The position numbers and the translations under genes were made by a program. The notes beneath the pieces are model-generated. The model did no database searches. It worked only from the letters and a program-made list of their open reading frames with translations, and had not been told where the DNA came from. 20,000 nt of DNA from an uncultured virus (IMG/VR IMGVR_UViG_3300030329_002226) (lineage: Duplodnaviria; Heunggongvirae; Uroviricota; Caudoviricetes): the IMG/VR virus record IMGVR_UViG_3300030329_002226, positions 47,277 through 67,276 of that record. One strand, given 5' to 3'. This document shows, piece after piece, positions 3,142 to 19,492 of the stretch; position 1 is the stretch's first letter, and each line of letters begins with the position of its first letter.

Positions 3142-3405
3142 ATGAAAAAACCACAAATTAAAACCAAAACAAGTACTAATGAACTACAAACTAAAAGGTT
3201 TGTTATTAGAAAATCATTAATAGGTTCAAATACAATTATAGTATTTATGAATCATAAAAATGAAGAATGTCGATACAATCATGACTTAGTATACAATCAA
3301 TTAAAAGATAAATTCGAGTCAATGAATTGTTTCCAGAAGTACAAAAGTTATACTAATTCTAAAAATCTACCTAAATTTGTTAGAGAATTAAAATCAATAG
3401 TATAA
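3142..3405 (+). CDS. Early hypothetical protein (87 aa), paralogue of 4248..4496
   Basis: 51/71 identical residues to 4248..4496 from TKRFVIRKSLIG onward (hand alignment). Flanked by the class-A motif and a terminator. Confidence 0.85.
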   Translation: MKKPQIKTKTSTNELQTKRFVIRKSLIGSNTIIVFMNHKNEECRYNHDLVYNQLKDKFESMNCFQKYKSYTNSKNLPKFVRELKSIV

Positions 3406-4247: not shown

Positions 4248-4496
4248 ATGAAGACTAAAATTAAATTAAATCAACTAGCAACAAAGAGATTTGTTATTAG
4301 AAAATCATTAATTGGTAAAAACACAGTAATAACTTTTACTAATAAGAAAAATGAGAAATGTACTTATAATCATGACATAGTATATAATCAACTAAAAACT
4401 AAGTTTGATAATATGATGTGTTTTAATAAGTATGGTAATTATACTAACACTAATAACCTTCCAAGGTTTGTTAGAGAATTAGATAAAATAGTATAA
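4248..4496 (+). CDS. Early hypothetical protein (82 aa), paralogue of 3142..3405
   Basis: See 3142..3405. Confidence 0.85.
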   Translation: MKTKIKLNQLATKRFVIRKSLIGKNTVITFTNKKNEKCTYNHDIVYNQLKTKFDNMMCFNKYGNYTNTNNLPRFVRELDKIV

Positions 4497-9304: not shown

Positions 9305-9347
9305 TGACAATAGGGATTATAATTATAAAAATAACAGGCTAATGTCA
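9305..9347. promoter_or_regulatory. Inverted-repeat operator/iteron-like site overlapping the HTH gene start
   Basis: TGACAATAGGG-N21-GGCTAATGTCA; same geometry as 4505-4547. Confidence 0.5.
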
Positions 9348-9962
9348 CACGAAAGAAACATGAAATGGTTAAATGATAGACAAATTATTTATAGAAGAGA
9401 TCCTATTAATGATAAACCTACTATTGAGACAGATACATATAGATATTATGAGCAAGGCACACATGAATGTTATACACTATTTAACACCAGTGCTAAAATA
9501 CCTACTTATAAATCATTAAAATGGCATTTTCTTGTATTATACTATTTAAATAGTGACATTTTGTCACCTGAAGAAGAGATAATAACTTTATTTAAATTTA
9601 TAGCTAAAAAAGAGAATGGATTTGTTACATTTTTTATTAGTAAACAAAAACTAGAAGAAATAATACAAAACGTACTGACAATAGGTGGTGAACCACCAAT
9701 AAATAGAAAAAGAAAAATAATATTTAAAGACTTTACAGGATTATCTACTAAAGAAAAACTATCAATTGTAGGAAAATTAATAGGTAGATCAAGCATAGAT
9801 AAAGAAATGATATATGAAACTATGTTAGATTTAAATGACTGGGGTAAGAAAATTACTATTAGTCGTATTGCTGGTTTACTTAATTGTTCCGTGAGAACAA
9901 TACATAGAAATATGGGAGATGAATTAAAACGAGAAAAAGTAAGATTAAATGAAGAAATATAA
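9342..9962 (+). CDS. DNA-binding protein with C-terminal HTH (206 aa)
   Basis: C-terminal KITISRIAGLLNCSVRTIHRNM is an HTH-like pattern. Confidence 0.75.
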   Translation: MSHERNMKWLNDRQIIYRRDPINDKPTIETDTYRYYEQGTHECYTLFNTSAKIPTYKSLKWHFLVLYYLNSDILSPEEEIITLFKFIAKKENGFVTFFISKQKLEEIIQNVLTIGGEPPINRKRKIIFKDFTGLSTKEKLSIVGKLIGRSSIDKEMIYETMLDLNDWGKKITISRIAGLLNCSVRTIHRNMGDELKREKVRLNEEI

Positions 9963-12337: not shown

Positions 12338-14050
12338 ATGATAGAACAAAACGAGATTAATGGATTTTTGATTGATAAGTTCAATCAACATAACTTAGAA
12401 GTTGGGAAGAAACAAGGGATTTGTCCTTTGTGCTCACATACTAGGAAACCTCAGAATAAGAAAGCTAAATGTTGTTCTTATGATTGGGAACGGGGTCTCG
12501 GAACTTGTCATAACTGTAATTCTACATTTCAACTCCATACATATCAACGTAAAGGAGCTAGTGATAAAGAATATACTAGACCAGTAATAACTAAATACTT
12601 GCCAGTTAAGGATAAAGTTACTACATGGTTTGAAAAAAGAGGGATATCTCAAAGGACTTTGGACGACCTTAAAGTTGGTCAAGGTCCTGAGTATATGCCA
12701 CAGACTGGCAAAGAAGAGAATACCATTCAATTTAACTATATAATAGGTGATCAACTTATTAATGTTAAATATAGAGATGGTAGAAAGAACTTTAAATTAT
12801 ATAAAGGAGCAGAAAAAGTATTTTATAATATTAATAGTATTGTAGGGTATGACAATTGCGTTATAACTGAAGGTGAAATGGATGTATTAGCATTACATGA
12901 AGCTGGTGTTACTAATGTTATTTCAGTTCCTAATGGCGCAACATTACATCATAACAATTTAGATTATCTTGATAATTGTATAGACTATTTTGAAGATAAA
13001 CAAAAAATAATATTAGCATTAGATACCGACGAACCTGGATTAGCATTACGAAGAGAATTAGTTAGAAGACTAGGAGCTGAAGTATGTTACTTAATTGATT
13101 TTGAAGAATGTAAAGACGCTAATGAATACTTAATAAAACATGGCAAAGAAAAACTTAAAGAAACAATCCAAAAAGCAAGAGCATATCCACTCGAAAATGT
13201 CACAACGTTCAAAGATATTGAAGGAGACGTTAAAGACTTTGTCACAAACGGATTCAAACCAGGATTCCAAATCGGTTTACCAAACTTTGATAGAATATTT
13301 TCAACGTATACCGGGCAGTTCATTACTGTTACTGGCATACCTTCTAGCGGTAAGTCTGATTTTGTTGACCAAATGGTTGTAGGATATAATAAACTATATG
13401 GTTGGAGAACAGGATTTGCATCACCAGAAAATGCTCCTAATTATTTACATGCTCATAAGTTAATGAGAAAAGTTTGGGGTGATATGCCTCAACGAGATGA
13501 TATTGGAGGTTCTAAATGGGATGAGGTAGCAAATCATGTTAATGATAATTTCTTTTTTATTGATATGGAGAAATACACATTAGAATCTGTATTAAGAAAA
13601 GGAGCTGAACTTGTTAAACGTAAAGGTATTAAATGTTTGGTTATTGACCCTTTTAATAAAGTTAGAGATAAGAATGCTTCATCAATAGATGTTAATATAT
13701 ATACTATGGAATATCTAACTAAAATAGAAACATTTGCAAAGAAATATGATGTGTTAGTATTTATTGTAGCGCATCCAACTAAAATGTATAAAGATAAAGA
13801 TGGGAAAATCGAAGAACCTAATATGTATAACATTAAAGGTGGAGGAGAGTGGTATGACGCGAGTTATCACGGCATTCTTGTACACCGCGATTATATACTC
13901 AAGAACACGAAGGTCAAAGTACTCAAGGTCAAATTCCAAAATTTAGGAGAAAATGGAGGAGAATGCTTTTTTACTTGGGAACCTAAATCAGGTAGTTTTA
14001 TTCCTCAAGTTACTGATGAATTAGAATTAGAAAAAATGCCATGGGAATAA
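12338..14050 (+). CDS. Primase-helicase (T7 gp4/Twinkle-like)
   Basis: Zn-binding CPLC...CHNC, TOPRIM TEGEMD and DTDEPG, Walker A TGIPSSGKS, LVIDP, VAHP. Confidence 0.92.
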   Translation: MIEQNEINGFLIDKFNQHNLEVGKKQGICPLCSHTRKPQNKKAKCCSYDWERGLGTCHNCNSTFQLHTYQRKGASDKEYTRPVITKYLPVKDKVTTWFEKRGISQRTLDDLKVGQGPEYMPQTGKEENTIQFNYIIGDQLINVKYRDGRKNFKLYKGAEKVFYNINSIVGYDNCVITEGEMDVLALHEAGVTNVISVPNGATLHHNNLDYLDNCIDYFEDKQKIILALDTDEPGLALRRELVRRLGAEVCYLIDFEECKDANEYLIKHGKEKLKETIQKARAYPLENVTTFKDIEGDVKDFVTNGFKPGFQIGLPNFDRIFSTYTGQFITVTGIPSSGKSDFVDQMVVGYNKLYGWRTGFASPENAPNYLHAHKLMRKVWGDMPQRDDIGGSKWDEVANHVNDNFFFIDMEKYTLESVLRKGAELVKRKGIKCLVIDPFNKVRDKNASSIDVNIYTMEYLTKIETFAKKYDVLVFIVAHPTKMYKDKDGKIEEPNMYNIKGGGEWYDASYHGILVHRDYILKNTKVKVLKVKFQNLGENGGECFFTWEPKSGSFIPQVTDELELEKMPWE

Positions 14051-14305
14051 ATGAGTCCTATAAAAAGAAAAGACAAAATGGGACAATATATGCCTACAGT
14101 AGAAGAATACAAGGCATACGCTTGGTGTATAAATAATTATATTTATATATCTCCATTTGCTACAGGAGAAGGAGCATGGTATATAGATATAAATTTAAAT
14201 GGTAAAATACATAGATCTCCTGAAAGTTATGGTAAAGTAACTATATGGATAAAGATATATGAGTATTATAAATATTATTATAATAAATATGAAGACAAAG
14301 TTTAG
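14051..14305 (+). CDS. Hypothetical protein (84 aa)
   Basis: ORF track; abuts the helicase stop. Confidence 0.7.
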   Translation: MSPIKRKDKMGQYMPTVEEYKAYAWCINNYIYISPFATGEGAWYIDINLNGKIHRSPESYGKVTIWIKIYEYYKYYYNKYEDKV

Positions 14306-14933
14306 AAATGCTGAAGAAGCTTATAATTATTTCTTTGATAAAATATTATTAGAAGGAATAAACTATGGGGATACAAAAGCTTTATTTAATATAGGATTTA
14401 CTTTACAAAAACCTATGGAAAATTATATTGTAAATGAAGAACGTAATTGGAAATTAAATTATGCTCAAGCAGAATGGGAATGGTATTTATCTGGAGATTC
14501 CAACATTGCTAAATTAAAAGAAATATATGGTAAAATACCAGCAATATGGGAGCGTATGGCAGATAGTTATGGATATGTTAATTCTAATTATGGTTGGCAA
14601 TGGCAACGTAATGACCAGATAGATTATGTAGTTGCAAAGTTAAAAAATTGTAAAGATACTAGACACGCGGCTATTAGTATTTATGACTGCAAAGAACATA
14701 AAATATATACCAAAGATACTCCTTGTACTTATGCAGTTCAGTTTTATATATTAAACAACGTGTTAAATATGTGTGTTGTAATGCGTTCTAATGATCTCTG
14801 GTATGGCTTCTGTAACGATCAATATCAATTCAGTATGTTACAAAAAATGATTGCAGAGAGACTGTCTATTGAAATAGGAACTTATTACCATTTTGCACAT
14901 AATTTACACTTATATAATAATAAAATAAACTAA
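14289..14933 (+). CDS. Thymidylate-synthase-fold enzyme, probably dCMP hydroxymethylase/methylase
   Basis: Catalytic PC, MRSNDLWYGFCND, HFAHNLHLY, NSNYGW. Start reassigned to ATG 14289 (MKTKFRNA). Confidence 0.8.
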   Translation: MKTKFRNAEEAYNYFFDKILLEGINYGDTKALFNIGFTLQKPMENYIVNEERNWKLNYAQAEWEWYLSGDSNIAKLKEIYGKIPAIWERMADSYGYVNSNYGWQWQRNDQIDYVVAKLKNCKDTRHAAISIYDCKEHKIYTKDTPCTYAVQFYILNNVLNMCVVMRSNDLWYGFCNDQYQFSMLQKMIAERLSIEIGTYYHFAHNLHLYNNKIN

Positions 14934-15724
14934 TGTATTATATATATCATATACCTGGTAAAAAAATTGGAGTTACACGTAATTTAGAAATGAGAGTAAC
15001 TTTAATGCAAGGATATAAAAAAGGAGAGTATGAAGTTCTAGAACAAAATGAAGATATAAATTATATATCTAATAGAGAATTAGAATTACAAAATACTTAT
15101 GGATATAAAATAGATAATCAATCATATAAAGAATTAATAAATAATAATAAAAAGAAAATGAAAGTAAACGCAACTGAACAAACTACAACATTTCCTTGTC
15201 CACTTAATAAATTAAAAGGACGATTAATGGATAATATAGGTATGACATGGAAAACTGACCATGGAGTATTTGTGTTAGATAAACATATGATTACATGGAT
15301 AATGGATAATGCTAGAATATCTATGTATAATAATGATAGAAGTTATGTATATAATAAAGCATTAGCTGAATGGTTTAATGAACGAAATAGTTTAGAATCT
15401 TTAATTGATTATAGTGATGATATAGAAAGAATAGAAGTATTTAACAAAATAAGATATTGGGCTAAATCTAGAGGTTTATTTGATAAAGGAGATACTAGAA
15501 CTCAATATATTAAATTACAAGAAGAAGCAGGAGAATTAGCTAAAGCATTATTAAAAAATGATGAAGCAGAAATAATAGATGCTATTGGTGATATGGTAGT
15601 AGTATTAACCAATCTAGCTCACATACAAGGCGTGAGTATAGAAAGGTGTATAGCATACGCTTATGATATAATCAATAAGCGTACAGGTAAAATGATTAAC
15701 GGAACATTTGTAAAAGATGAATAA
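14933..15724 (+). CDS. MazG-like NTP pyrophosphohydrolase with N-terminal extension
   Basis: C-terminal KLQEEAGELAKA...IIDAIGDMVVVLTNLA. N-terminal YYIYHI..KIGVTRNL is GIY-YIG-like. Confidence 0.8.
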   Translation: MYYIYHIPGKKIGVTRNLEMRVTLMQGYKKGEYEVLEQNEDINYISNRELELQNTYGYKIDNQSYKELINNNKKKMKVNATEQTTTFPCPLNKLKGRLMDNIGMTWKTDHGVFVLDKHMITWIMDNARISMYNNDRSYVYNKALAEWFNERNSLESLIDYSDDIERIEVFNKIRYWAKSRGLFDKGDTRTQYIKLQEEAGELAKALLKNDEAEIIDAIGDMVVVLTNLAHIQGVSIERCIAYAYDIINKRTGKMINGTFVKDE

Positions 15725-15992
15725 TTACACAGTAAAGACTGAAGATAGAATAGTACAAAAAGTTATCGAAAAGATAGATCAACGTAGTCTGGTTGGTCAA
15801 GCTAAGTACGGAGCAATGATGATGGAAGAAGTAGAAGGTAAAGATAAAAATTTAATGGACTTCTTAACTGATGTTCAAGAAGAAATAATGGATGCTTTAT
15901 TATATATTCAAGCGGCAAAAGCTTGTTTAACTGATGAGATAGAAGAAGCAATGCTACGAAGAATAGAAGTACACGATGAAAAGGAAATATAA
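15717..15992 (+). CDS. Small all-alpha NTP-pyrophosphatase-like protein (91 aa)
   Basis: RS.VG..KYG...QEEIMDALLY; EExxD metal-binding motif. Confidence 0.6.
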   Translation: MNNYTVKTEDRIVQKVIEKIDQRSLVGQAKYGAMMMEEVEGKDKNLMDFLTDVQEEIMDALLYIQAAKACLTDEIEEAMLRRIEVHDEKEI

Positions 15993-16422
15993 AAGAAAAA
16001 AAGGCCCTGTTAACAGTAAGAAAATTACTGTTGACGGGATAACCTTTGCCTCAGGACTTGAGAAGTATATGTATCAAGCTTTGAAGAATGCGGGAATAGA
16101 CGCGGTTTACGAAGGTAGAACATACACTGTATTTCCTGAATTTGAATTTCCAAATATATCTATAGAAAGATGTGCTAATGGTAAAGGAGAGTATAAGAAT
16201 AGAGGAGAAAAGAAAATACTACCAATTAAATATACTCCAGACTTTATAGGAGATGATTTTATAATTGAATGTAAGGGTAGAGCCAATGAAAGTTTTCCTT
16301 TACGTTGGAAAATGTTTAAAAAATATGTAAGTATTGAATTACCTCATGTAATTATATATAAACCACAAAATCAAAAAGAATGCGACGAAACAATAAAGTA
16401 CATCCAGCAGTTGCAAAAGTAA
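15976..16422 (+). CDS. Endonuclease I-like Holliday junction resolvase
   Basis: FASGLE, YEG, YTPDF, IECKG as in the T7 gp3 family. Confidence 0.8.
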   Translation: MKRKYKRKKGPVNSKKITVDGITFASGLEKYMYQALKNAGIDAVYEGRTYTVFPEFEFPNISIERCANGKGEYKNRGEKKILPIKYTPDFIGDDFIIECKGRANESFPLRWKMFKKYVSIELPHVIIYKPQNQKECDETIKYIQQLQK

Positions 16423-16702: not shown

Positions 16703-17671
16703 ATGAGTTTATTTAAAGAAAGAATACCTTACAAACCGTTTGAATACCCTATATATTATACCGAAGGTTGGCTTAAACAAGCTCAAGCTTTTTGGTTACA
16801 TACTGAAATACCAATGTCAGGCGATGTAAAGGATTGGAACGAAAAATTAACTTTATCTGAAAAAAACTTAGTAGGAAATATCTTATTAGGTTTTGCTCAA
16901 ACTGAATGTGCAGTATCAGATTACTGGACTCAAAAAGTCGTCGCATGGTTTCCAAAACATGAGGTCCAGCAAATGGCCATGATGTTCGGCTCACAAGAAA
17001 CAATACATGCTGTGGCCTATAGTTATTTAAATGAAACACTTGGACTTGAAGATTTCGAAGCTTTCTTACACGAGCCAGCTACTGCTGATCGTTTTGACAA
17101 TCTTGTTGCATATGATGGCAATGAACCAGTCGGCATCGGAAGATCGTTGGCTATTTTCTCTGCTTTCGCAGAAGGAGTTTCTTTATATTCCGCTTTTGCA
17201 GTGCTTTATTCTTTTCAGTTGCGTAATCTTCTCAAAGGAATAGGTCAACAAATGAAATGGAGTGTAAGAGATGAATCGTTACATAGTAGAATGGGTTGTC
17301 AATTATTTAGACATATGTGTGAAGAAATTCCTACATTATTAGATAATTGTAAAGAAGATGTATATTCAGCTGCAAAAATAATGATGGAATTAGAAGAAAA
17401 ATATATAGATAAAATGTTTGAAATGGGTGATATTGAAAACCTTAAAGCATTTGATTTAAAACAATTTGTTAGAAAAAGAACAAATGAAAAATTACAAGAA
17501 CTTGGTTACTCAGATAAAAGAAGATTTTTCAACTATGACAAAGACGCAGCAGCGAATCTTGATTGGTTCTATCATCTTACTGGGGGTCACACTCACACTG
17601 ACTTTTTTGCGATTAGGCCAACTGACTATAGTAAAGCAAATGAAGGAGAGGATTTTGAAGATATATGGTAA
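16703..17671 (+). CDS. nrdB: Class I ribonucleotide reductase beta subunit
   Basis: W..TEI, ETIHAVAY, AEGVSLYSAF, RDESLH, C-terminal DFF..RPTDYSK. Confidence 0.95.
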   Translation: MSLFKERIPYKPFEYPIYYTEGWLKQAQAFWLHTEIPMSGDVKDWNEKLTLSEKNLVGNILLGFAQTECAVSDYWTQKVVAWFPKHEVQQMAMMFGSQETIHAVAYSYLNETLGLEDFEAFLHEPATADRFDNLVAYDGNEPVGIGRSLAIFSAFAEGVSLYSAFAVLYSFQLRNLLKGIGQQMKWSVRDESLHSRMGCQLFRHMCEEIPTLLDNCKEDVYSAAKIMMELEEKYIDKMFEMGDIENLKAFDLKQFVRKRTNEKLQELGYSDKRRFFNYDKDAAANLDWFYHLTGGHTHTDFFAIRPTDYSKANEGEDFEDIW

Positions 17672-17688
17672 AAATAAAATAAAATAAA

Positions 17689-17907
17689 ATGGCACAAAAT
17701 AAATTAAAGAAAAAAGTTGAAGCTTTAACTAGAGTAGTTCAAGCTTTAATTAAAGAGGTTCAAGTGAATGCTAGTTTATCACAAGGAACTATAACTGCTT
17801 TTCAACTTTATGTTGGTGAGAAAAAATGGAATGAATTAATTGAGGAAATGAAAAAGATAGAAGAAGAAAAAAAAGATAAAAAATTAGAAATTCCTGAAGA
17901 AAAATAA
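17689..17907 (+). CDS. Small coiled-coil protein (72 aa) between nrdB and nrdA
   Basis: ORF track; tight packing. Confidence 0.65.
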   Translation: MAQNKLKKKVEALTRVVQALIKEVQVNASLSQGTITAFQLYVGEKKWNELIEEMKKIEEEKKDKKLEIPEEK

Positions 17908-17908
17908 T

Positions 17909-19492
17909 ATGTGGAAAAAAGAATGGAAAAAAGGAATAGATTATCCTGAGTGGGGAGACACTGAGGTATATAAAAAAACAATAGGAGGAGGTTATTTATA
18001 TAATGGAGAAACACCAAAAGATGCGTATAAAAGAGTTGCTAAAACAATTGCTAAAAGATTACAGAAGATCGAAATGGAAGAAACTTTTTTCACATATATG
18101 TGGAAAGGTTGGCTATGTTTGGCCTCGCCTGTTCTTAGCAATACTGGTACTGATAGGGGTCTCCCTATTAGTTGCTTTGGTATTGATGTCGCTGATTCTA
18201 TTATTGACATAGGACAAAAGAACTTAGAGATGATGCTACTCGCTAAGCATGGCGGTGGAGTTGGTATCGGTATAAATCAAATAAGACCCGCTGGCTCAGA
18301 AATAAAAATGAATGGAACAAGCGACGGAGTTGTACCGTTTTGTAAAATCTATGATTCTACGATACTCGCCACGAACCAAGGAGCGGTTAGAANNNNNNNN
18401 NNCGGGGATAAGTTTATGCGAAAGCTTATGGGTGGAGATGAAAATGCAAGAAGGAAATGGGGAAGATTATTACAAAAACGTAAAGCGACTGGAGAACCTT
18501 ATATCTTATTTAAAGGAAACACGAATAAAAGTAATCCACCAGCTTACAAAGACAATTCCTTAAAAGTGCATATGACAAATATCTGTAGTGAAATAGTTTT
18601 ACATACAGATGAAAATCATTCATTCGTTTGTTGTCTATCTAGCTTAAACCTAGCTAAATATGATGAGTGGAAAAATACAAATATTATTTATGATTCAATA
18701 TGGTTCTTAGATGGTGTGTTAGAAGAGTTCTTACAAAGAGCTAAGTATAGAAAAGGATTTGAAAATTCTGTACGATCTGCTGAAAAAGGTAGAGCATTAG
18801 GTCTTGGAGTACTTGGATGGCATACTTATCTACAAGAAAAAGGTTTACCATTTGAAGGTTTATTATCACAATATGAAACAAGAAGAATTTTTAGTCAAAT
18901 TAAAATCGAAAGTGAAAGAGCTTCCATGGATCTTGCTACGGCTTTTGGGGAACCTTTGTGGTGTGTTGGTACTGGTATGCGTAATACTCACCTTCGTGCT
19001 ATTGCTCCCACTGTTAGTAATTCAAAGCTTAGCGGAAACGTCTCGCCCGGAATAGAACCTTGGGCAGCAAATGTTTTTACAGATCAATCAGCTAAAGGAA
19101 CTTTTATTAGAAAAAATCCTACATTACAAAATCTTTTAAAGAAAAAGAAATTAGATACTAAAGAAATGTGGGAAAAGATATTAGCAGATGGTGGATCAGT
19201 TCAAGATATAAAAGAATTATCTATTGAAGAAAAAGAAGTGTTTAAGACATTTAAAGAAATAAATCAACTAGAATTAGTAAGACAAGCAGGTATACGTCAG
19301 CAATATATAGATCAATCAGTTAGTTTAAATCTTGCTTTTCCAGCAACAGCAAATCCTAAATGGATTAACAAAGTACATTTAAATGCATGGGAAAAAGGTG
19401 TTAAAACATTATATTATATGAGAACAGAATCAGTCTTGCGTGGAGATATTGCGGATCAAGCTATGCAAGAATGTGTTAGTTGTGATGGGTAA
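17909..19492 (+). CDS. nrdA: Class I ribonucleotide reductase alpha subunit (no ATP cone; spans assembly gap)
   Basis: ISCF, TNICSEI, VCCLSS, AIAPT, KTLYY, C-terminal CVSCDG; Ns at 18393-18402. Confidence 0.95.
   Translation: MWKKEWKKGIDYPEWGDTEVYKKTIGGGYLYNGETPKDAYKRVAKTIAKRLQKIEMEETFFTYMWKGWLCLASPVLSNTGTDRGLPISCFGIDVADSIIDIGQKNLEMMLLAKHGGGVGIGINQIRPAGSEIKMNGTSDGVVPFCKIYDSTILATNQGAVRXXXXGDKFMRKLMGGDENARRKWGRLLQKRKATGEPYILFKGNTNKSNPPAYKDNSLKVHMTNICSEIVLHTDENHSFVCCLSSLNLAKYDEWKNTNIIYDSIWFLDGVLEEFLQRAKYRKGFENSVRSAEKGRALGLGVLGWHTYLQEKGLPFEGLLSQYETRRIFSQIKIESERASMDLATAFGEPLWCVGTGMRNTHLRAIAPTVSNSKLSGNVSPGIEPWAANVFTDQSAKGTFIRKNPTLQNLLKKKKLDTKEMWEKILADGGSVQDIKELSIEEKEVFKTFKEINQLELVRQAGIRQQYIDQSVSLNLAFPATANPKWINKVHLNAWEKGVKTLYYMRTESVLRGDIADQAMQECVSCDG
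18393..18402. other. Assembly gap (10 N)
   Basis: Run of n in the sequence. Confidence 1.

Follow-up and report, generated by a model that had tools for sequence, protein, structure and literature searches.

Pre-replicative modification of cytosine is already known in phages, and enzymes of the thymidylate synthase fold with aspartate at position 177 have been mined from viromes. According to the accessible text of PMC13326640, Asp177 (N177D) selects dCMP, Asp or Glu at position 143 (L143D/E) accompanies hydroxymethyl products and Asn169 (D169N) marks hydroxylases, the discovery of which led to the rules being revised. The same text describes modified nucleotides as being incorporated by viral replicative polymerases, and it reports that related enzymes expressed without a phage kinase gave only trace modification of E. 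coli DNA. In the available portion of PMC8670742, positions 177 and 147 are the top separators of modified from unmodified contigs, and PRA-PH domains co-occur with such enzymes. The available part of the mSCD preprint (bioRxiv 10.1101/2024.12.05.627091) records 5mdC from five of seven tested Asp177 enzymes. The DNA of Enterococcus phage VPE25 is modified at cytosine, being bisulfite-resistant and cleaved by PvuRts1I (PMC4999554, available part), and T4 EndoII introduces nicks into host DNA but leaves hydroxymethylated DNA intact (PMC2764454, available part). No paper was found on a cassette of GIY-YIG, MazG and thymidylate synthase genes, or on DNA modification in the family described here, in a search for which subscription journals lay mostly beyond scope, and the family motif had no occurrence in the part of the MetaGPA supplements searched.

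The window analysed here is a stretch of 20,000 nucleotides at the end of a contig of 67,276 bases from an uncultured virus. The contig is linear, is given a completeness of 100% by CheckV and has no terminal repeats. Since the genes at the window ends lie 292–1354 bases apart in 10 related loci, the contig appears to be nearly complete with little missing. The genome encodes portal, muzzle-like, GroEL/GroES, sigma-like, ERF, exonuclease, primase-helicase, resolvase and NrdAB proteins. By major capsid protein its cultured relatives are Elemovirus, Pachyviridae and phage Panino, the identity to Elemovirus, Panino and spring podophage proteins being 41–47%, and Cellulophaga accounts for 15 of 85 capsid matches. 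The group 2 putative Flavobacteriaceae phages of Nishimura et al. 2017 (PMC5332604) likewise have GroEL/GroES, a sigma-70-like gene and a related major capsid protein, and we infer that the phage belongs to this group, for which the accessible part of that paper makes no mention of base modification. A PF00303 gene is absent from the five cultured flavobacterial phages examined. All 20 sequencing runs in which the window stretch was found, as assembled Logan contigs, are marine. A scan of genome contigs returned 16 loci in MAGs of mixed taxa and no reliable host, and the best explanation is a GroEL-encoding podophage of marine Flavobacteriia-type hosts. With the enzyme described below as query at least 577 matches were confirmed, and the family is common among marine phages. 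Features of the locus are compiled in Table 1.

Table 1. Positions of the cassette, its motifs and its flanking genes in the window
Feature	Position	Strand	Basis or remark
Toprim primase-DnaB helicase	12338..14050	+	flank; bait independent of the finding
Conserved 84-aa gene, no assigned function	14051..14305	+	flank, immediately before the enzyme slot
Short thymidylate-synthase-fold enzyme, predicted dCMP 5-hydroxymethylase, 214 aa	14289..14933	+	profile, PDB alignment, residue rules
Asp143-Thr-Pro-Cys146-Thr147	14715..14729	+	acidic 143, hydroxymethylase type; Cys catalytic
RSNDLWYGFCND motif	14784..14819	+	Asp177 codon 14817-14819 (dCMP selection); Asp169, not the hydroxylase Asn
GIY-YIG-like (T5orf172/MUG113) N-terminal domain of the 263-aa ORF	14933..15142	+	invariant Tyr5, Gly13, Arg21, Glu49
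Middle domain of the 263-aa ORF, alpha/beta and conserved, without family match	15158..15390	+	
MazG-type all-alpha NTP pyrophosphohydrolase domain, candidate dCTPase	15434..15724	+	EE..E...DA.GD
91-aa two-helix protein, very common phage family	15717..15992	+	invariant RS..G..KY, DxQEExMD..LY
PD-(D/E)XK resolvase-like nuclease	15976..16422	+	flank
Class I ribonucleotide reductase genes (small and large subunits)	16703..19492	+	flank; dCDP supply

The enzyme gene starts at an ATG at a place equivalent to that at which its homologues begin; an upstream ATG at 14259 was rejected because it overlaps the preceding gene and the aligned homologues start further downstream. The product matches PF00303 (2.8e-27) and scores below every NCBIfam ThyA cut-off. 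Among PDB sequences T4 gp42 (E 2.9e-18) and MilA (9.7e-18) come before the ThyA chains, of which the best reaches 1.6e-16 and those of E. coli length 2.3e-15. The residues Glu62, Arg125, Asp143, Cys146, Thr147, Arg166, Ser167, Asp169, Asp177, His207 and Tyr209 are identified, the numbers coinciding with those of E. coli ThyA from 143 to 209. With the fold, Cys146, the equivalent of Glu58, Arg166, His207/Tyr209, Asp177, an acidic residue at 143 and Asp rather than Asn at 169, everything looked for in a gp42-type enzyme is present. Asp177 aligns with Asp179 of T4 gp42 and with the ThyA position 177, as an earlier note on this DNA had proposed from the letters of the motif, and the resemblance to gp42 that it saw in PAIW...NSNYGW is borne out by the gp42 alignment. 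The two enzymes (gp42, PDB 1b49/1b5e) have in common the fold, the Asp143/Cys146/Thr147/Ser167/Asp169/Asp177 set and the NSNYGW segment, but they are 27% identical and the window enzyme is 32 residues shorter. Its chain ends five residues past Tyr209, compared with 45–69 in the long forms described below and 61 in Xp12; in ThyA the C-terminal tail closes over the folate.

The loci retrieved gave 305 distinct active-site segments, all of which keep Asp169 and Asp177 and none of which is of the Asn177 form, so that Asp177 is not a chance substitution. Two further loci fall outside this pattern, one (L242) having Asp177 with Ser in place of Arg166 and the other (L147) ending before the motif. Three identities for the window enzyme were rejected. 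Canonical ThyA would have Asn177, Leu143, His147 and a C-terminal arm, all missing here, and would pass the NCBIfam cut-off; a dCMP methylase of the Xp12 type would have a hydrophobic residue at 143 and a long C-terminal arm; and the 5-hydroxy-dCMP synthases RB69 gp48 and DLP3 gp80 (PMC13326640, accessible text) share Asp177 and the acidic residue at 143 but carry Asn169 where the window enzyme has Asp. By the published residue rules the protein is most likely a dCMP hydroxymethylase of the T4 gp42 type. There is a small chance that it acts on dCMP to give another product, a 5-methyl-, 5-hydroxy- or undescribed C5 adduct: its identity to gp42 is low, position 126 holds His instead of the second phosphate-binding Arg, and the rules themselves changed once hydroxylases were found (PMC13326640), whereas Asp169 excludes the published hydroxylase signature and Asp143 speaks against methylation. 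The earlier proposal of a dCMP-specific enzyme and a modified cytosine is well supported by all diagnostic residues and by gene context, and is narrowed to 5hmdC for this genome.

The gene order around the hydroxymethylase candidate is regular. In the best 80 loci baited with the enzyme it is usually primase, 84-aa gene, enzyme, GIY-MazG gene, 91-aa gene and resolvase, and 13 of these 80 represent a second lineage with a stand-alone MazG. Baits from the flanking genes also brought up loci without the short enzyme, which hold a full-length ThyA-like protein instead. These long forms have Leu143, His147 or Tyr147, Asp169 and G-x-P-Y-Asp177. This is the signature of the Xp12 dCMP methylase (QNN97214), which has a hydrophobic residue at 143, Asp169, G-x-P-Y-D177 and a long C-terminal arm and is of a type unlike the window enzyme. 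Sister phages are predicted to fill the same slot with 5mC makers instead of the 5hmC enzyme; the alternative of 5mdC, also raised in the earlier note, is retained for them and dropped for the window genome.

When the primase-helicase was used as bait, each of the best 80 loci carried an Asp169/Asp177 enzyme in the slot (54 short gp42-like, 24 long type 1 and two long type 2) and none an Asn177 enzyme or ThyX, with a GIY domain downstream of the enzyme in all 80. The three kinds of enzyme are 21–40% identical to one another. From the long enzyme as bait, GIY-MazG was the next gene in 79 of 80 loci, the contig of the remaining one ending too early, and one of the three enzyme types was found in all 405 loci with a GIY domain and more than 1 kb upstream of it, a count over all loci that is not de-duplicated and was partly baited by the enzymes themselves. 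In a quickly built helicase tree of 140 rows, thinned from 337 sequences, the enzyme type changes 25 times, with at least six of the changes forced by strongly supported branches; the types are more clustered than in shuffles. The helicase may itself recombine, and the tree does not give the direction of change. That the enzyme is repeatedly replaced and yet never loses Asp177 is the best indication of selection on the slot for activity on dCMP.

Some members of the family depart from this arrangement. In one locus (L091:680-2245) a long-type enzyme lies in frame with GIY-MazG with the first GIY strands missing, which may be a fusion or an assembly deletion. Several genomes have an inserted CAP-domain gene with a signal peptide that separates the long enzyme from GIY-MazG (L282:5461-5997, L291:1870-2304, L293, L294, L301, L311 and L320). 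A class II ribonucleotide reductase replaces class I NrdAB, with the cassette kept, in L064, L078, L080 and L033, where it is downstream of the resolvase, and at L539:2143-4008.

In 42 long contigs PF00303 was matched exactly once per contig. A single such gene per genome, adjoining ribonucleotide reductase, would also be expected if the slot supplied thymidylate, either through an odd dUMP methylase or through synthesis of 5m-dCMP and its deamination to dT, the route proposed for Xp12. The sister podophage MW202828 has ThyX, the long forms exceed the TIGR03284 ThyA cut-off, and two of the seven Asp177 enzymes in the available part of the mSCD preprint gave no 5mdC, all of which can be read in the same direction. 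We regard a thymidylate supply as very unlikely, since the window enzyme stays below the ThyA cut-offs and combines Asp143, Thr147 and Asp177 without the tail of the long forms, none of the 305 segments has Asn177, and Xp12 has an adjacent DHFR and deaminase whereas profile searches found neither a dCMP deaminase nor a DHFR in 43 family genomes.

Downstream of the putative dCMP hydroxymethylase, the start of the 263-aa ORF (14933-15724) overlaps the enzyme stop codon (TAATG) and its product comprises three domains. The earlier note had described both neighbouring genes as MazG-like pyrophosphatases, and this stands for residues ~168–263 of the first (Pfam PRA-PH 2.3e-7, MazG 1.7e-5). Both the fold and an EExxE...ExxD-type acidic motif are present in this C-terminal domain: the model superimposes on 1vmg with a VIA Z of 9.8 and an rmsd of 2.5 over 83 aligned residues, and in Foldseek DCTPP1 ties with other MazG folds, no match reaching E<=0.001. 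All matches of the 263-aa model in fold searches came from this part. A gp56-like role for the domain is plausible. T4 also has a nucleotide pyrophosphatase and a GIY-YIG domain within one genome, but gp56 is a dUTPase_2, whereas here the pyrophosphatase is of MazG type with GIY-YIG fused to it. The MazG family numbers 1259 phage records, Streptococcus and Staphylococcus phages foremost, and phi18:3 and phi19:3 have a stand-alone copy and no PF00303 gene, so that MazG alone is no sign of modification.

Residues 1–70 of the same ORF, which the earlier note had missed, resemble a GIY-YIG domain. Across 48 aligned members the matches at E<=0.1 are to T5orf172 in 43, MUG113 in 40 and GIY-YIG in six, the best being 4.9e-6; the domain of the window by itself matches no Pfam family, and there is no credible match among PDB sequences. 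A two-strand motif and the conserved Gly, Arg and Glu can be recognized in the sequence, the spacing from Gly13 to Arg21 equals that from Gly49 to Arg57 in EndoII, and Glu49 is invariant. Among 40 scanned of 150 listed database relatives of the domain, 13 continue into MazG, four into NUMOD-type tails and one into dUTPase_2. Tails of the NUMOD type occur in homing endonucleases, and a homing-endonuclease ancestry is an alternative suggested by these sequences. In P0384 the GIY domain is joined to dUTPase_2 instead of MazG, and this Pfam family also matches T4 gene 56. A single database protein, P0270, joins the GIY domain to a C-terminal segment of a C5 DNA methyltransferase and is possibly chimeric.

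The claim of a second pyrophosphatase is unsupported for the 91-aa gene: a PDB profile search was empty, Pfam and NCBIfam gave no match, and the hhalign probability against the neighbouring MazG is 1.4%. The monomer model predicts two long helices that match generic helices only. Weak EncFtn-like matches were obtained for 10 of 38 members, Atlas matches were to unnamed clusters only, and a search without positive control found no match in T4, Xp12, BF486P2, VPE25 or phi38:1. The family is very large (at least 7980 of 8000 scored candidates), and the gene is present in 15 of 16 clustered genomes.

The closest cultured matches of the enzyme are gp32 of Bacteroides phage BF486P2 (41% identity, with Asp143/Thr147/Asp177 and GFCND as in the window enzyme) and its VPE25 counterpart (36%, with Asp143/Thr147/Asp177). 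Both sit beside enzymes that decorate 5hmC, which supports the assignment: a carbamoyltransferase and a P-loop kinase-like gene in BF486P2, and a beta-glucosyltransferase and a P-loop kinase-like gene in VPE25, which also has its own PolIII alpha. The window enzyme, in contrast, has none of these nearby. BF486P2 has a second gene of this fold, gp27 (L081:9168-9929), with Asp143/Thr147/Asp177 and no Glu at the equivalent of position 58, adjoining the kinase and carbamoyltransferase. In the second lineage (L027, L028, L031, L034-L037) the short enzyme is 71% identical and is directly preceded by three genes (for example L028:809-1756, L037:8210-9121 and L031:9108-10001), namely a PALP PLP-dependent gene and two genes of ~300 aa that neither Pfam nor NCBIfam recognizes; together with a DUF6378 gene they are candidates for an amino-acid-type hypermodification of 5hmC.

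The absence of a glucosyltransferase and kinase that the earlier note reported for the window extends to the near-complete genome. A Pfam scan of its 80 proteins found no glycosyltransferase, carbamoyltransferase, kinase, polymerase or methyltransferase, nor did a scan of 150 cluster representatives from 16 genomes (eight core clusters and the majority of the 178 accessory clusters listed). Across the 43 family genomes, 42 of them at least 90% complete, profile searches that may miss very divergent enzymes, and in each of which the positive controls matched, found no DNMK kinase and no PolA, PolIII alpha or PolB, and one weak AAA_28 kinase match inside a 2436-aa ORF. T4, on the other hand, has the gp1 kinase, a polymerase and glucosyltransferases, for which no counterparts were found by profile here, and the system as a whole is not a T-even system. 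As no phage kinase or polymerase was found, the host must phosphorylate and incorporate the base, or incorporation is low.

A core gene of 206 aa in the window, with a C-terminal HTH (9342-9962; 15 of 16 genomes), has no family match and is a candidate replication initiator or recruiter of the host replisome in a phage without a polymerase of its own. Two paralogous ORFs of ~85 aa (3142-3405 and 4248-4496) lie in a low-GC region where the skew changes sign, near a likely origin. Same-strand out-of-frame ORFs within the primase and reductase genes (13140-13382, 17466-17687, 18312-18563 and 18804-19055) recur in 39–56 related loci, which may merely reflect codon conservation.

Restriction-site composition was compared in the family. 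No 4-base palindrome is eliminated in any of 16 family genomes (lowest value 0.43), and four of six flavobacterial control phages lack at least one while the other two keep all; the retention is weak support for modified DNA. The CpG ratio of 0.50–0.84 follows GC content, and GATC is avoided in the BF486P2 stretch even though modifying genes are present there. The family genomes still avoid GATATC, GGATCC, GAATTC and GGTACC. This avoidance, the lack of a detected kinase or polymerase and the trace incorporation reported for related enzymes without a kinase (PMC13326640) would fit an enzyme that makes 5hm-dCMP of which little enters phage DNA, the cassette mainly reshaping nucleotide pools. We consider this improbable: some 6-base sites are avoided even by Xp12, which is fully methylated, the exchange with methylases is in keeping with a requirement for C5-substituted dCTP that can be used, and a drain of dCTP without a usable substitute would presumably starve a phage that depends on the host polymerase. 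Variants of the pool reading are a drain on dCMP/dCTP, poisoning of host replication and evasion of dCTP-depleting defences. Such defences exist.

Taken as a whole, the locus is probably a three-gene cassette for pre-replicative cytosine modification, which is the best explanation. The enzyme would very probably bind dCMP through Asp177, with Cys146 attacking C6, methylene-tetrahydrofolate giving the carbon and water adding to yield 5-hydroxymethyl-dCMP, the addition of water being attributed to Asp143 and the missing ThyA C-terminal arm. With slightly more confidence than doubt, the MazG domain would cleave dCTP, and perhaps dUTP, down to the monophosphate, which would both supply the enzyme with substrate and reduce the pool of canonical dCTP. 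As profile searches found no kinase or polymerase in the phage, host kinases are proposed to phosphorylate 5hm-dCMP further to the triphosphate, which the replicative polymerase of the host, acting with the phage primase-helicase, would insert into DNA. Phage DNA would then likely carry 5hmC without glycosylation in place of some or all of its cytosines, which would shield restriction sites that contain C; replacement may be partial, and the purpose is presumably anti-restriction. In sister phages the ThyA-like Asp177 methylase in the slot would produce 5mC to the same end. That the fused GIY-YIG-like domain nicks unmodified host DNA, by analogy with EndoII, is a tentative suggestion. Counting against the cassette as a whole are the sole gene of this fold per genome, the ThyX of the sister podophage, the occurrence in the second lineage of the same enzyme with a MazG lacking the GIY domain, and the NUMOD-bearing, homing-endonuclease-like proteins among the next relatives of that domain. 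In its most far-reaching form, which we think unlikely, a polymerase-less marine family would replace most of its cytosine through host kinases and the host replisome, the fused protein would do the work of EndoII and gp56, and repeated exchanges between 5hmC and 5mC synthases in a single slot would vary the chemical disguise of the DNA against modification-dependent restriction.

What differs here from the described systems is the economy of the cassette and the interchange of its enzymes. Naturally near-matched pairs, such as L266 and L273, which are sister tips of the helicase tree, bear on the benefit to the phage of 5mC versus 5hmC. If the assignment is right, a common group of marine phages has modified DNA, which would matter for the restriction ecology of marine Bacteroidota and for bias in virome libraries.
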